The translations under genes were made by a program, and so were the position numbers. Source: Promethearchaeota archaeon (GTDB lineage Archaea; Asgardarchaeota; Lokiarchaeia; Sigyniarchaeales; SOKP01). Taken from it: a stretch of DNA of 64,000 bases. Numbering within the stretch: the first letter of the stretch is position 1; the number at the start of each line of letters is the position of its first letter. A model generated the notes under the pieces. That model worked only from the letters and a program-made list of their open reading frames with translations, searched no databases and was not told where the DNA came from. Below, in pieces: positions 21,167 through 27,226 of this stretch. Location: NCBI GenBank assembly GCA_019058365.1, contig JAHPZE010000011.1, positions 60,921-124,920 of the forward strand, given 5' to 3'.

Positions 21167-21733
21167 ATGAAAGTTGTATTATTTAATGGAAGTCCAAGAA
21201 AAGAGGGCAATACATATCATTGCTTAAATGTAGTGATGGATGAATTGAAAGCTGCTGGAATTGAATGTGATTATAACTGGATTGGAATGGAAAAATTACA
21301 AGGTTGTACTGCTTGCATGAAATGTACAGAAAATGATGATCAGAGGTGTGTATTGAAAGGGGATAAAATGAATGAATATATAGAAAAAATGTTAAATTCT
21401 GATGGAATCATTATTGGTTCCCCTACATATTTTTCAGATTTATCAACAAGCACAAAAGCTTTAATAGAACGTGCCGGATATGCAACTGGAGGACATTTGA
21501 AGCATAAGGTAGGTGCAGCAGTAGTCGCTGTTAGGAGAGCTGGCGCAAATCACGTATTTTCTAGCATTAATTACTTCTTCCTCATTAAACAGATGTTTGT
21601 AGTAGGATCAAGTTATTGGAATGTCGGTTTTGGAAGGCAACCGGGAGAGGTGTTAGAGGACGAAGAGGGTATTAGAACATTTGAAAATTTAGGGAAAAAT
21701 TTTGCTTATTTACTTAAAAAACTTAAATCTTAA
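21167..21733 (+). CDS. Iron-sulfur flavoprotein (Isf)/flavodoxin-fold FMN reductase
   Basis: GSPRKEGNT, CTACMKC...C, GSPTYF. Confidence 0.9.
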   Translation: MKVVLFNGSPRKEGNTYHCLNVVMDELKAAGIECDYNWIGMEKLQGCTACMKCTENDDQRCVLKGDKMNEYIEKMLNSDGIIIGSPTYFSDLSTSTKALIERAGYATGGHLKHKVGAAVVAVRRAGANHVFSSINYFFLIKQMFVVGSSYWNVGFGRQPGEVLEDEEGIRTFENLGKNFAYLLKKLKS

Positions 21734-21990: not shown

Positions 21991-22596
21991 TTATTCAGGT
22001 TTTTTTCCCTTTCTCCAATAAGCAAAGTATACAATTAGTAAGATTATTGCTGCTGGAATTCCGATATATATTAAGAGCCACATAATTGTTAAGAACCATG
22101 CATATATCCAATAAGAATAAGGTTCACTACCAAAAGGAGCGTTGTAATGTCCATCAAAAGCAAGATAAATACAATAAAATATTAACATAAAGAAACCAAA
22201 ACCACCACCGCCCCCATATTCTTTTTTTCTATGGGTTTTTTTCTTCTCTCTGTCTTTGAAAAACTGTTTTTTTTCGGGAGCTAAACTACGCCACCATAAA
22301 TAACCTCCTAAACCAAAAAACAATCCTGCTGGAACACCCACAAATAAAAGTTCCCATAAAATTAGAAGGATAATAAAACCTACGACCCAATTCATCCTCC
22401 ATTCGCCAATTAAAGCAGCACCTTGTCTTCCAAGTGGGGTTGTTTCAATAAACCAAAACAAAACAAGAAGAGCTCCGATGATAGCACAAATACCGGCAAT
22501 AATTACTACTACAAGTGGTATCCGATAATCTCTCCAAATTCCTTTCCAAAATTGCTTTTCACTTAATTCATCACTATTTTCCATAAAGATTACCAA
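21991..22596 (-). CDS. Membrane protein, unknown function
   Basis: Four hydrophobic segments in two similar halves joined by a basic/Gly-rich linker. Confidence 0.7.
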   Translation of the reverse strand: MVIFMENSDELSEKQFWKGIWRDYRIPLVVVIIAGICAIIGALLVLFWFIETTPLGRQGAALIGEWRMNWVVGFIILLILWELLFVGVPAGLFFGLGGYLWWRSLAPEKKQFFKDREKKKTHRKKEYGGGGGFGFFMLIFYCIYLAFDGHYNAPFGSEPYSYWIYAWFLTIMWLLIYIGIPAAIILLIVYFAYWRKGKKPE

Positions 22597-22737
22597 TTTT
22601 TTTTGTTAAAATTTTGTATAAGATATAAAGAGAAGTATTTAAAATTAACTAGCATTTATTATTGAATGGTTTTATAAACTTATTCAGAAGCACAAAAAAT
22701 ATAAGAAAAAAGAACTATTAAAATTATAAGGATATAA

Positions 22738-22757
22738 ATTATTAAGAACCTAACTAA
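22738..22757. promoter_or_regulatory. Degenerate operator copy upstream of marR
   Basis: ATTATTAAGAACCTAACTAA matches the palindrome at 23319 in 15 of 20 positions. Confidence 0.55.
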
Positions 22758-22760
22758 GAT

Positions 22761-23237
22761 TTGATAATAATGGATGATAAGAATTCTTCAAAATCTTTAG
22801 ATATTTATTGTCAACCAGAAGATATTGTTGAAGTTTTTGAACTTATTAACACATTAAATAAAAAATATGAAAAAATACAACGTGAAAATATACAACAATT
22901 GGAGCTTACACCTACACAACATCTAATACTAAGAGAATTATGGAGATCTGATGGTCAACAATTTAAAAATTTAGCGGAAACATGTAATTGTTCTAGATCC
23001 ACAATTACAGGTGTAGTAGACACAATGGAGAAGAACGATTTGGTATCTCGTGACTCACATCCTAACGATAGAAGAAGCTTGCTGGTTAGACTTACAAAAA
23101 AGGGAAAGGACTTAAGAACTAAAACACCTCGATTAGAATCAATGGTAAATGGATGTTGTCCTGGAATCAATGAGGAAGAAATAAAAAAATTAGGAGAATT
23201 ACTCCAAAAACTACTGAATTCACTAACTTCTTTATGA
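22761..23237 (+). CDS. MarR-family regulator with CxC and CC motifs
   Basis: LTPTQHLIL, TCNCSRSTITGVVDTME, DRRSLLVRLTKKG, NGCCPG. Start is likely the ATG at 22770. Confidence 0.92.
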   Translation: MIIMDDKNSSKSLDIYCQPEDIVEVFELINTLNKKYEKIQRENIQQLELTPTQHLILRELWRSDGQQFKNLAETCNCSRSTITGVVDTMEKNDLVSRDSHPNDRRSLLVRLTKKGKDLRTKTPRLESMVNGCCPGINEEEIKKLGELLQKLLNSLTSL

Positions 23238-23280
23238 AATTATTAAATCTTCATTCAATTTTGATTCTTTTTTTAATATT

Positions 23281-23348
23281 TTTGTTAGGATCTTAATTAT
23301 ACGAAACAAAACTTTTATATAGTTAGGATCCTAACTATCACCTAACTA
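23281..23348. promoter_or_regulatory. Operator array overlapping a TATA box
   Basis: Perfect palindrome ATAGTTAGGATCCTAACTAT at 23319-23338; 16/20 copy at 23281-23300; half-site CCTAACTA at 23341-23348; TTTATATA at 23314-23321. Confidence 0.75.
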
Positions 23349-23379
23349 ATTAAAAATGTTATTGAGGTTATAATTACAA

Positions 23380-23478
23380 ATGAGAGATAAAAATGAAAAA
23401 TGTTGTTCTGAAGGATGTTGTGGTGAAGAGACTAAAAGTGTAAAAGAAGAAATTCAGTCAAAAGAAAGATGTTGTTAA
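23380..23478 (+). CDS. 32-aa peptide with three vicinal Cys pairs (metallothionein/metallochaperone-like; not in ORF track)
   Basis: MRDKNEKCCSEGCCGEETKSVKEEIQSKERCC; GAGGT upstream; first ORF after the operator. Confidence 0.75.
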   Translation: MRDKNEKCCSEGCCGEETKSVKEEIQSKERCC

Positions 23479-23666
23479 AGCGACAATACGATGTTTAAAT
23501 CAAATCTAATTTAAAAATTATAGATCAAAATTTTTATTTTTTTAAGTTTTATTTCAAAAAAAAAATACAGATTGGATAAAACTGTTAGTGATTAGAATTT
23601 GTTGAAAAAATGCAATCCAAAAATCGTTTTATACTATTTGTAAAATAATCAATTAACAAAATTAAT

Positions 23667-24293
23667 ATGGAGTTTAAAAAAATGAATGTACTGGGTATAG
23701 CAGGGACTCCTAGAAAGCAAGGGAATAGTGAAATCCTCTTAAGATATGCTTTAAAACCATTTAAAAATAATGGATGGGATATTAAAATTTTTCTTTTAAG
23801 TGCATTAACAATAAAACCTTGTAATGCCTGCGACTCATGCAAGAAAACTGGTACCTGTATTATTAATGATGATATGCAAGGGATTTACGATGCATTTCAA
23901 AGGTGTAATGCGATTATAATCTCAAGTCCTGTTTATTACCTAAATGTTAATGCTCAATTACTGTCCTTACTTGATAGATACTATGCAGTAAATAGTACAA
24001 AACCTTTAGAAGGGAAAGTAGGTGGAGCTATTGCTGTTGGTAATGGAACAAATGGAGGTCAAACATTAGCTCTTAATGCTATTTACACATGGATGCTCTC
24101 ATGTGGAATAATATGTGTTCCTGGTGTATTAAATGGGGTAAAAGCTGTAGCAGATAAGCCAGGTGATATTTTAAGCCAAAAAAACCAGTTAAAGCAAGCA
24201 GAAATTCTTGGACTTAATATTCTAAAAGTAGCAAAAGAGTTAAAATCCATCACGAGTTTTAATAAATACCCTAAATATAATAAAAAGGTGTGA
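23667..24293 (+). CDS. Iron-sulfur flavoprotein (Isf)/flavodoxin-fold protein
   Basis: GTPRKQGNS, CNACDSC...C, SSPVYY; stop overlaps the next start (GTGA). Confidence 0.9.
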   Translation: MEFKKMNVLGIAGTPRKQGNSEILLRYALKPFKNNGWDIKIFLLSALTIKPCNACDSCKKTGTCIINDDMQGIYDAFQRCNAIIISSPVYYLNVNAQLLSLLDRYYAVNSTKPLEGKVGGAIAVGNGTNGGQTLALNAIYTWMLSCGIICVPGVLNGVKAVADKPGDILSQKNQLKQAEILGLNILKVAKELKSITSFNKYPKYNKKV

Positions 24294-25975
24294 TTAATAT
24301 CGCAGTAGTCTATATGCGAAAGTTGGAATTAGAACCAGAGTCATACGAATCAAATTTCACAGCTCTAACAAAAGGAGCAAATGAGGAAGTACAAGATTGG
24401 ATATTGGGACGAATTAAAGCACAAGAGAAAATTCTAGAAGTAGGCTGTGGAACAGGTATTTTCGCAGCAAAAATGGCTTTAAGAGGAAATGAGGTATTTG
24501 CAATTGATAAAAACCATAGAATGATAACTACTGCAATGAAAAATTACCCTTCTAAATCAGATCTTAAATTGTTATATCAGATAGGCACTATAGATGATCT
24601 ACCAGTTCAGGATAACTCAATAGATATTATTATTAATACATTTATGCTTTCAGAACTTAGGCCCTTTGAACAACAAATTTTTCTTAGAAATGCATGGAAA
24701 GCTTTAAAACCGAATGGTCGAATGATTATAGCAGCAGAATTTATACCTACAGGTTTCTGGAAGCTTTGGTTTAACATAAAACGTTGGTGGTATAAAAAGA
24801 AATTAAGAAGACTTAGAATAGAAAGTACATTTTTAGTGAAGTGGTTCTTTAATTATTTGGAGCCTATTGGTTTTGAAATTTCAACTATAAAAAAGTGGCG
24901 ACATGGATCAATTCAGGTAATTGAATTAAAAAAGAATGACAATTTAGATGAACCTGGGTATTATCGTCCTAAATTAAGAAAAGCTAAAGGCTTTGGTTCT
25001 CAAATGAGTATTTATCGCTGTCTATTTACTGGACAAACTGATCATATACCAATTGAACCAGGTATTTACCAATCTGGTAATCCCAATGAAAATTCTCCTA
25101 TTATTGTGACAGCTAATTATGTTTATACATATATTAAAGTGATGCGTGCTCTTAAAGGAATAGATTCTTGGGTATTATGTTTAGATTCGAGAGGAATAAA
25201 TGTTTGGTGTGCTGCACGAGGAAACAATTTTGGAAATAAGCAATTAATTGAAGCCGTTAAAACTACGGGAATAGCAAATATTACTAATAAAAAGACAATT
25301 ATTGTACCTCAACTCTCAGCAGGAGGAATCGCAACACCGCTGATAAAAGCTGAGGCCCCAGACTTTCCATTTAATGTTGTATATGGTCCTGTATGGGCTA
25401 AATTTTTACCTAAATACTTAGAAGAACGTCCCGCTCGAAAACCTGATAAAATGAAATTAGCAAAATTTACAATATCGCATCGTTTTCGAGCAGAAATTAC
25501 ACATACAACATTTTTACTTCGAAAGATTTTTCTATGGCCCAGTATCGCCATAATTTTATTATTTACAGGTCTAAGTTTTATTAATCCTGTATGGATAACA
25601 CAATTATTGATTGTGGGCGAAATTTGGCTTTGGATAATTATAGCAAATGCGCTTATTGCGATATTTTTTCCCATAACAAAATTTACGAGGAAATTTATCA
25701 ATAAAGGAATCATTTTTGGAGTTATTAATGTTTTATTGTTTGGTGGAATTTCTTGGCTTTTTCATTATTCTCTGTTATCCATTCTTCTGAGTAGTATTTT
25801 TTACTTTTGGTTAGCTTTCTTTTCGACAATGTCATTTAGTGGATATACTATGGCAACAAGTCCTAGAGAAATTCAAGATGAGTATCCTATTTTCAGTAAA
25901 ATTAATATGATTTTATTGATAATAGGTCTTGTTACCAAAATTATTGGGTTCATTTTTTTTAATATTTTAAAATAA
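24290..25975 (+). CDS. Class I SAM methyltransferase fused to an HgcA-like corrinoid protein with C-terminal membrane domain
   Basis: N-terminal ILEVGCGTG and LKPNG. Then IEPGIY..GNP..NSPIIVTANY, GINVWCAARG cap helix, PQLSAGG and YGPV; about 5 TM helices; FSGYTMATS. Confidence 0.88.
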   Translation: MINIAVVYMRKLELEPESYESNFTALTKGANEEVQDWILGRIKAQEKILEVGCGTGIFAAKMALRGNEVFAIDKNHRMITTAMKNYPSKSDLKLLYQIGTIDDLPVQDNSIDIIINTFMLSELRPFEQQIFLRNAWKALKPNGRMIIAAEFIPTGFWKLWFNIKRWWYKKKLRRLRIESTFLVKWFFNYLEPIGFEISTIKKWRHGSIQVIELKKNDNLDEPGYYRPKLRKAKGFGSQMSIYRCLFTGQTDHIPIEPGIYQSGNPNENSPIIVTANYVYTYIKVMRALKGIDSWVLCLDSRGINVWCAARGNNFGNKQLIEAVKTTGIANITNKKTIIVPQLSAGGIATPLIKAEAPDFPFNVVYGPVWAKFLPKYLEERPARKPDKMKLAKFTISHRFRAEITHTTFLLRKIFLWPSIAIILLFTGLSFINPVWITQLLIVGEIWLWIIIANALIAIFFPITKFTRKFINKGIIFGVINVLLFGGISWLFHYSLLSILLSSIFYFWLAFFSTMSFSGYTMATSPREIQDEYPIFSKINMILLIIGLVTKIIGFIFFNILK

Positions 25976-26023: not shown

Positions 26024-26329
26024 GTGGTAAAAGTAACAGTAAAACCAACCTCAATTAAGATACCGACAGTTCTTCCAAAAATCTCGATAAATCCCGATTT
26101 GTGCACAGGTTGTGGCATATGCGGAGAAGTATGTCCGTTTGGAATACCAAAACCTAATAATGAAGGAAAATTTGAGATGTATGAACCAGAACGCTGTACA
26201 GAATGTTCAGCTTGTAAACGAAATTGCCCGACAATGGCTATCATATTACAAGAACGAAAAGGTTGCGGTTGTTTATGGAATGCACGTGCAGTAGCGAAAA
26301 ATCCACAAATTAATAGTTGTTGTGGATAA
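26024..26329 (+). CDS. HgcB-like 2[4Fe-4S] ferredoxin
   Basis: CTGCGICGEVCP, CTECSACKRNCP, GCGC and C-terminal SCCG; directly follows the hgcA-like gene. Confidence 0.85.
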   Translation: MVKVTVKPTSIKIPTVLPKISINPDLCTGCGICGEVCPFGIPKPNNEGKFEMYEPERCTECSACKRNCPTMAIILQERKGCGCLWNARAVAKNPQINSCCG

Positions 26330-26368: not shown

Positions 26369-27226
26369 TTAATAATCAAACATCTTTCTCTTCTTCTCTT
26401 CAAGAAAGCTTCTTCTAGTCAAGATCTCCATTTCCGCATTTAGCCAACAAAGTTCATCATAAGTACAGCTTGAATTGAAGACTTCCTCTGCCTTTCTCTT
26501 AATATCTTCAATAGAGGGCATATCAAGGTTTATTTTCTGAATTTTTTCAGCTAAAATCCAACATAGTTGGTCGTAAGTATATTCATCTAAAGAAAGATAA
26601 TATGCTGCTTCCCTTATTTGTGTCTTAAAATCTGGCTCTTCTGGTTGTTCTTTTTTCTCTTCAACTTTTTTTTGTTCCTTGGGTTCCATTTCAACTTTCG
26701 CGGGAGGTTGTTCAAACTCAACGAATTTAACAGTTTCAGGAGATTCTTTTAGCTTTTTAGATAGCTCATAGCTTCTATGATCCTTAATTTGTTGAAGCCA
26801 CTCTAATATTGGTGTTTCAATTTTTCTTTCTCTCTCTTCCACAGGTACATTAAATTTAACAGGTTTTATCCTTTCAGAAGGTGTTTTTAATACAAATTCT
26901 GGTCTTCGTTCAACAGTTTTCCCTGGTATTAACCCTCTTTCAAGATCATGCATCATAGCTAAAAAGGAGCCATATTCTCTCTTTTGTTTCATGATCAAGA
27001 TTTTTACTGATCCACCACGTTCTTTATCTATCTTCCGAGCAATTTCAGCAATAATATCCTTTTTTTCTTGAGGTACTTCTAAACCTACCCAAATATAAAT
27101 AGTATTTTTTTCTTCGTCATCAACAAGATATCCATTATTTTCATTAAAAGATAATCTATCTATCTTAATTAATTCGCCCTCATTACTAATATTAAATAGT
27201 TTCATTACACTCTCTCTCATGAACAT
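26369..27226 (-). CDS. Single-domain gelsolin with C-terminal X domain (1DGelX-like actin regulator)
   Basis: Gelsolin-fold YLVDD...IYIWVG...Q.RE...F; acidic linker; two AYYLS..YD.LCW..AE repeats. Confidence 0.8.
   Translation of the reverse strand: MFMRESVMKLFNISNEGELIKIDRLSFNENNGYLVDDEEKNTIYIWVGLEVPQEKKDIIAEIARKIDKERGGSVKILIMKQKREYGSFLAMMHDLERGLIPGKTVERRPEFVLKTPSERIKPVKFNVPVEERERKIETPILEWLQQIKDHRSYELSKKLKESPETVKFVEFEQPPAKVEMEPKEQKKVEEKKEQPEEPDFKTQIREAAYYLSLDEYTYDQLCWILAEKIQKINLDMPSIEDIKRKAEEVFNSSCTYDELCWLNAEMEILTRRSFLEEKKRKMFDY

Follow-up and report, generated by a model that had tools for sequence, protein, structure and literature searches.

The perfect 20-bp palindrome that lies over the 3' end of a TATA box, downstream of a marR gene in this Asgard archaeon of the Promethearchaeota, is very probably the operator of that adjacent MarR, acting as a repressor site. 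Its best explanation, in our view a likely one, is as the high-affinity operator of the MarR encoded just upstream. We pair the site with this regulator because the palindrome is conserved in 27 related loci, because operators and recognition helices co-vary across the wider MarR subfamily, and because perfect copies stand upstream of marR itself in some genomes. Positions below, and in Table 1, are those of the window, i.e., the whole stretch of 64,000 nucleotides that was analyzed.

Both direct reading and a pattern search give ATAGTTAGGATCCTAACTAT at 23319-23338 as a palindrome with 0 mismatches, whose first three bases are the last three of the TATA box TTTATATA (23314-23321); this bears out the sequence-only reading from which the analysis started, as does the 16/20 copy that it had placed 38 bp upstream of the proximal site (TTTGTTAGGATCTTAATTAT, 23281-23300). 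At up to 3 mismatches, ATAGTTAGGATCCTAACTAT matches the window at 23319-23338 and nowhere else, whereas at up to 4 mismatches there are 2 matches against 0.10 in simulated sequence, and at up to 5 mismatches there are 5 against 0.75. Thus, the 15/20 copy that had also been reported (ATTATTAAGAACCTAACTAA, 22738-22757, 13 bp ahead of the marR ATG at 22770) is present but not significant taken singly, though it forms part of a conserved element considered below. The other matches at this level look like chance, one of them (31480) falling at the end of a 505-aa ORF. The half-site CCTAACTA occurs 6 times in the window as against 1.85 expected, with four of these occurrences in this locus. In the whole genome (4.74 Mb, 30% GC) there are 22 perfect palindromes of at least 20 bp, mostly of pure A/T, and the one at 23319-23338 is among the five with 6 G/C. 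Rarity alone cannot dismiss a chance palindrome; conservation in orthologous promoters does dismiss it, and the significance of the site comes from its clustering with further copies, its position and, above all, this conservation.

Table 1. Features of the marR locus, in window coordinates. Assignments of function are predictions.
Feature	Position	Strand	Description
Candidate marR autoregulatory element	22727-22757	+	Half-site TAAGGAT (22727-22733), TATA-like ATATAAAT (22732-22739) and imperfect operator core TTAAGAACCTAA (22742-22753); includes the 15/20 copy
marR	22770-23237	+	155-aa MarR-family winged-helix regulator; C14, C72-x-C74, C129-C130
T7 run after marR	23268-23274	+	Probable archaeal terminator of the marR transcript; function inferred
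Distal operator copy (16/20)	23281-23300	+	Core TTAGGATCTTAA at 23285-23296; about -63 to -44 relative to the predicted start
Core promoter	23302-23321	+	BRE-like CGAAAC(G/A)AAAC, then TATA box TTTATATA (23314-23321); assigned by consensus only; columns invariant or nearly so
Proximal operator, perfect 20-bp palindrome	23319-23338	.	Arms GTTAG / CTAAC; about -25 to -6 relative to the predicted start
Extra right-arm half-site CCTAACTA	23341-23348	+	11 bp past the proximal right arm, around the predicted transcription start
CC...CC peptide gene, direct target	23380-23478	+	Acidic, 32 aa, one CC pair near each end; GAGGT at 23364-23368
Conserved T-rich element after the peptide gene	23510-23546	+	TTTAAAAATTATAGATC, then T5-A-T7; conserved in most relatives
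FMN-reductase-fold flavoprotein	23667-24293	+	CxxCxxCx5C motif; PF03358, 92.4 bits; start probably 23682 by homology
CpaM-like SAM methyltransferase / HgcA-like corrinoid fusion	24290-25975	+	561 aa; NVWCAARG; transmembrane helices
HgcB-like 2x[4Fe-4S] ferredoxin	26024-26329	+	Ends in CCG; NF040864, 53.5 against a cut-off of 99; Fer4 domains

The orthologues of this MarR with 64-97% identity, which we call clade A, come from about 28 genomes, mostly of a single genus, such that counts over these closely kindred loci overstate their independence. Within clade A the spacer behind marR is unalignable with one exception, an 80-bp block that aligns gap-free over 28 sequences, including 27 related Promethearchaeota loci, and that runs in the order distal site, CGAAACGAAAC, TTTAWATA and proximal site. 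Hence, the motif, which the sequence-only reading had suggested looking for in orthologous promoters, is indeed there and conserved in those 27 loci. Of the 28 sequences, 21 match the proximal arms GTTAG and CTAAC exactly, 25 deviate at no more than one position and all at no more than two of 10, and the four bases between the arms take nine different forms; conserved arms around a free center are the pattern expected for a dimeric winged-helix protein. The distal site keeps a fixed spacing throughout the 28 sequences, with a mean information of 1.38 bits per column as opposed to 0.28 in the 5' flank. The downstream half-site of the sequence-only reading does exist at 23341-23348 but is weakly conserved, being mostly AACTA among the 28 sequences with a mean information of 0.77 bits. 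In every clade-A locus the proximal operator core begins 9 bp after the start of TTTAWATA, and the preceding CGAAACGAAAC matches the archaeal BRE consensus. Since archaeal transcription starts about 25 bp after the TATA box, the start is predicted near 23344.

The palindromes might instead act as nucleic-acid structure, be it an RNA hairpin that terminates or attenuates read-through from marR or a cruciform. The stretch 23284-23335 does fold in prediction into an 18-bp stem joining the distal and proximal sites (-28 kcal/mol, z = -5.0); however, a palindromic motif that is present twice will necessarily pair with its own copy. Further, covariation across the 28 sequences does not surpass that of shuffled ones (46/500 and 143/500), half of the sequences do not keep the central pairs, the arms are conserved by sequence without compensatory change, and the fixed register of the site to the TATA box likewise speaks against a role as RNA structure. 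Hence, strong as the predicted stem is, we rejected this reading, with neither covariation nor a match to any Rfam family in its favor, and regard it as scarcely credible.

The operator is not confined to clade A. More distant members of the MarR subfamily (clade B, 42-59% identity) carry TTCGGnnCCGAA operators in a register fixed at 24 bp before TTTAWATA and, in most archaeal loci, operators of the form TT(A/C)GGnnCC(T/G)AA adjoin the subfamily. The first residue of the recognition helix, R76 in the window's protein, is Arg wherever the operator reads TTAGG and Pro, Gln, Lys or Ser where it reads TTCGG. In the tree, clade A is a single clade (support 95/96) nested among the ArsM-linked members, and the Arg/TTAGG state reappears in two distant loci (L119 and L128); the co-variation of helix and operator, which draws on some two to three independent lineages, is thus to be taken as suggestive. 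Binding of MarR to these sites is itself deduced from sequence, and one could assign them to a different, unlinked transcription factor with the neighboring MarR as a bystander. We consider this most improbable: the operator type follows MarR through about 50 archaeal loci with differing cargo genes, changes in step with the recognition-helix residue, recurs upstream of marR itself and is unique in the genome. The latter point comes from a scan of all 4.74 Mb with an 18-mer at up to 3 mismatches and an arms-only pattern at up to 2, by which the regulon was to be delimited as the sequence-only reading had envisaged, and which found no further credible operator site. The only near match (C47) was discarded as a regulon site, as it lies inside a coding region of more than 1000 aa, and a reversed control pattern gave more matches than the real one. 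With the operator unique in the genome, the regulon would therefore be local.

Upstream of marR, full perfect operator copies are seen in three loci (L072, L076 and L079). In the window the corresponding element is degenerate, its core at 22742-22753 following ATATAAAT in the same register in which the operator follows the TATA box. An element of the form T(T/A)AGGAT-N8-ATT(A/C)(A/G)GnnCC(T)(A/T)A is nevertheless common to the archaeal clades A and B and to the Chloroflexota homologues, with a right arm CCTAA that is at least 90% conserved and a weak left arm. In the Chloroflexota homologues (L100, L112 and L115), TTAGGAT-N8-ATTAGGnnCC immediately follows the -10 box in clear TTGACA-N17-TATAAT sigma-70 promoters. 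We accordingly deem negative autoregulation of marR probable, and the locus would then be a clear case of one regulator/operator pair working on both archaeal TATA/BRE and bacterial sigma-70 promoters. The earlier proposal that MarR represses both itself and an hgc-like operon is strengthened in its first half by this conserved element, found even in bacteria; its second half is plausible, but the gene directly behind the operator encodes the CC...CC peptide.

The same positional data bear on whether the regulator might be an activator or a dual regulator that recruits TBP/TFB from the distal site, in the manner of the archaeal BldR or Ptr2. In archaea, an operator upstream of the TATA box can also serve activation, and BldR is a known archaeal MarR activator. 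The distal site does lie upstream of the BRE, and the best palindrome of clade B is likewise 24 bp upstream of the TATA box. In clade A, however, the strongest and best conserved site covers the region from the 3' end of the TATA box to the start, and that of the bacterial homologues adjoins the -10 box or overlaps with it, both of which are repressor positions; hence, we judge activation to be decidedly improbable and retain repression as the preferred reading.

The regulator itself is a bona fide MarR by the domain test (PF01047, 62.8 bits against a cut-off of 24.6), with MarR-type families as the only HTH matches in Pfam and NCBIfam, where no ArsR/SmtB HTH (HTH_5) domain was detected, and its relatives in the PDB are all of the MarR/OhrR/SlyA kind. 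In an AF2 model with MarR-typical secondary structure, including helices at 65-71 and 76-88, C72 and C74 fall in the HTH turn before the recognition helix and C129 and C130 at the end of helix 5, with C14 in a low-confidence N-terminal tail. All of 13 diverse members have C74, C129 and C130, and at least 90% have C72, a constancy that spans Asgard archaea, Chloroflexota, Nitrospirota and Bacteroidota.

From the CxC in the HTH and the CC pair, the sequence-only reading had derived derepression by a metal(loid) or by redox chemistry. For the latter, the nearest model is a 2-Cys OhrR-type thiol-redox sensor that would bind these very sites and be released from DNA by, for example, an intersubunit disulfide between an N-terminal Cys and C130, with no metal(loid) involved. 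OhrR is the nearest relative of the protein both among solved structures (2pex, E 1.3e-11) and in NCBIfam (NF052638, 50.6 bits), its resolving C127 aligns with C130, and an N-terminal Cys is common in clade A. Yet the NF052638 score falls far short of its cut-off of 200, and the N-terminal cysteines are missing from most bacterial and many clade-B members, which keep the C(x)C and CC motifs. Further, no ohr/OsmC-type gene is found among the annotated neighbors, and the partner conserved across phyla, ArsM, argues against OhrR-like sensing. Thus, we think a redox sensor unlikely; the near-complete conservation of the cysteines and the ArsM linkage favor the metal(loid) half of the earlier proposal, and the neighborhood argues against its redox half.

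This linkage is pervasive: an ArsM-like gene is adjacent in 37 of the 44 loci outside clade A, directly downstream in 35 and divergent upstream in 2, and the four such genes that were checked against NCBIfam all exceed the ArsM cut-off. Because the MarR subfamily is so overwhelmingly linked to ArsM, we favor the metal(loid) reading and regard a metalloid or soft metal as the rather more probable kind of effector; for As(III) itself we see about an even chance. As the present genome holds no ArsM above the cut-off, the arsenic link here is one of regulator homology only. A locus from a further member of the Promethearchaeota, L121, shows the order MarR-ArsM-DUF166-CpaM/HgcA-like, its DUF166 (DfsP-like) gene at L121:4433-5137 lying between ArsM and the CpaM-HgcA-like fusion. 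In L124, from a MAG labeled 'bacterium isolate D_1_bin.48', a MarR 44% identical to the window's is followed on the same strand (L124:2974-5825) by ArsM (306 bits), HgcA (430 bits) and HgcB (101.7 bits), with a GTTCGGnnGTTAAC site right after the -10 box of a sigma-70 promoter; by its sequence, this locus links arsM and genuine hgcAB under this type of MarR. As a separate observation, a DVU_1556-like methyltransferase (267 aa) is encoded between MarR and ArsM at L054:6956-7759 and in L089, L091, L093 and L102.

The sequence-only reading had also remarked that described hgcAB regulation typically involves ArsR rather than MarR, and the literature agrees. The only characterized hgcAB regulator, that of Pseudodesulfovibrio mercurii ND132, is ArsR-like and arsenic-responsive, and MarR genes beside hgcA are noted only in passing, in a one-sentence mention of Dethiobacter and Geobacter daltonii. 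The literature searched contained no description of an arsenic-responsive MarR.

Turning to the genes behind the operator, the first is that of the CC...CC peptide. Such a gene is found in 26 of the 28 close loci; its product, with a CC toward either terminus, ranges from 25 to 45 aa in length (27-32 in most cases) and has no family match in Pfam or NCBIfam. What follows it is variable: the CpaM-HgcA-like fusion, mostly with the HgcB-like gene, in 17 of the 28 loci; only the flavoprotein, an optional gene among the relatives, in five; and a partial locus with an HgcB-like gene in one (L086). The remaining five have no such cargo genes within 3 kb, and hgc-like genes are absent altogether from 10 of the 28 close relatives.

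The fusion protein matches CdhD plus methyltransferase domains in Pfam, and it keeps the cap-helix Cys (NVWCAARG), but its NCBIfam scores are all under their cut-offs: 136.9 for CpaM (180), 175.1 for HgcAB_like (285), which is the best-fitting label, and 169.3 for HgcA (275). With HgcB similarly at 53.5 against 99, true HgcAB was ruled out for the downstream genes on the NCBIfam cut-offs, and the fusion and ferredoxin are, on these scores, HgcAB-like paralogues and not certified HgcAB. In published trees, Asgard sequences group with fused HgcAB proteins, a clade with a Pyrococcus member that lacks mercury methylation.

Co-transcription of the hgc-like genes with the peptide gene depends on whether the T-rich element at 23510-23546 terminates or attenuates the transcript or else acts as an internal promoter. 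It opens a block of about 100 bp (23510-23620) that is kept in many relatives and comprises a TATA-like stretch, T5-A-T7 and then ...GATTGGAT..TGTTAGTGA.TAGAA; taken as a whole, the block might end transcription, start it internally or form the 5' leader of the flavoprotein and hgc-like genes. We place the odds that the hgc-like genes share the transcript of the peptide gene at roughly even.

Several other features of the neighborhood deserve mention. The CxxCxxCx5C motif of the operon's flavoprotein resembles that of iron-sulfur flavoproteins, and the protein could be an electron donor for the corrinoid protein. It also has a paralogue of the same FMN-reductase fold at 21167-21733, such that the two genes, whose products are 25% identical, flank the locus (the other at 23667-24293). 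Divergent from marR, on the minus strand at 21991-22596, is a gene for a 201-aa membrane protein that has a Gly-rich loop and matches no family; the gene occupies this place in about 15 related loci, and the module may include it as well. The HgcB-like gene is immediately followed, again on the minus strand (26369-27226), by a gene for a 285-aa protein with weak gelsolin and DUF7904 matches, an Asgard-type cytoskeleton gene whose position is conserved in relatives.

Briefly, we advance the following plausible mechanism. A MarR dimer would contact the arms GTTAG and CTAAC, leaving the 4-bp center free, and once bound would deny TBP/TFB or RNA polymerase access to the CC...CC peptide promoter, as suggested by a site that begins within the 3' end of the TATA box and stops shortly ahead of the predicted start. 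The weaker distal copy upstream of the BRE and the half-site at the start point probably add cooperative binding. The degenerate copy that separates marR from its TATA-like box would provide weaker negative autoregulation, and the T7 run at 23268-23274 probably ends the marR transcript, in keeping with the oligo-T runs that terminate archaeal transcription. Most likely, a thiophilic metalloid, with As(III) as our best guess, would then bind C72/C74 together with C129/C130 and thereby release the repressor. The flavoprotein, the CpaM-HgcA-like fusion and the HgcB-like ferredoxin would possibly be expressed by read-through from the peptide promoter.

In evolutionary terms, we offer as a tentative scenario, and one we consider doubtful as a whole, that these proteins form an undescribed MarR-fold clade of arsenic/metalloid sensors, which was transferred along with its operator between Chloroflexota and Asgard archaea, and that one Promethearchaeota lineage was rewired from arsM to a module of CC peptide and CpaM-HgcA-like/HgcB-like proteins. 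If true, arsenic or a related metalloid would be what the HgcAB-like corrinoid enzymes natively act on, the peptide would serve as its carrier or buffer, and mercury methylation by true HgcAB would be a side activity of an arsenic-linked system. In any event, the operator appears to connect a second, unrelated regulator family, with a MarR fold and conserved cysteines, with ArsM, with HgcA-like genes and, in a single bacterium, with true hgcAB. The locus offers a testable handle on what HgcAB and their many HgcAB-like relatives do natively: with a short, defined and conserved operator and a small protein, simple binding assays should suffice to find the effector, which would in turn point to the likely substrate of the enzymes under this regulator.

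Against the backdrop of known systems, the layout has counterparts among archaeal repressors, of which MDR1, LrpA and Phr block the recruitment of TBP/TFB or polymerase. With these and TrmB the locus shares an operator between or over the TATA box and the start, a geometry that here comes from consensus motifs only; all four belong to protein families other than MarR. Among As(III)-sensing ArsR proteins, that of R773 has its CVC in the DNA-binding helix, and AfArsR and CgArsR use vicinal Cys pairs. The present regulator is probably alike to the ArsR/SmtB repressors and the ND132 regulator in that cysteines are clustered within or beside the DNA-binding element, the cargo is arsM or hgcAB(-like) and derepression by arsenic is expected; however, its fold is that of MarR, and it can thus work like an ArsR but is not a member of that family. 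The 2-Cys OhrR of Xanthomonas campestris (2pex/2pfb), the nearest solved relative in sequence, has the same fold and the C127 that aligns with C130, but its peroxidatic Cys is unaligned, as the alignment starts after it, and the low family score, the lack of an ohr gene and the arsenic-related neighborhood further set the two apart. Finally, as in E. coli MarR/marO and in ST1710 and BldR2 of Sulfolobus/Sulfurisphaera, the locus pairs a winged-helix MarR, presumably dimeric, with multiple pseudo-palindromic operators 16-20 bp long; these would lie over the core promoter and include a probable autoregulatory site of the regulator's own, and release by a small ligand or thiol chemistry is to be expected here too. 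The locus differs from those systems in the conserved C(x)C in the HTH turn and the CC after helix 5; in a cargo of ArsM, or of the CC peptide and HgcA-like proteins, as against efflux or aromatic catabolism; and in an operator family that appears to serve archaeal TATA/BRE and bacterial sigma-70 promoters alike.
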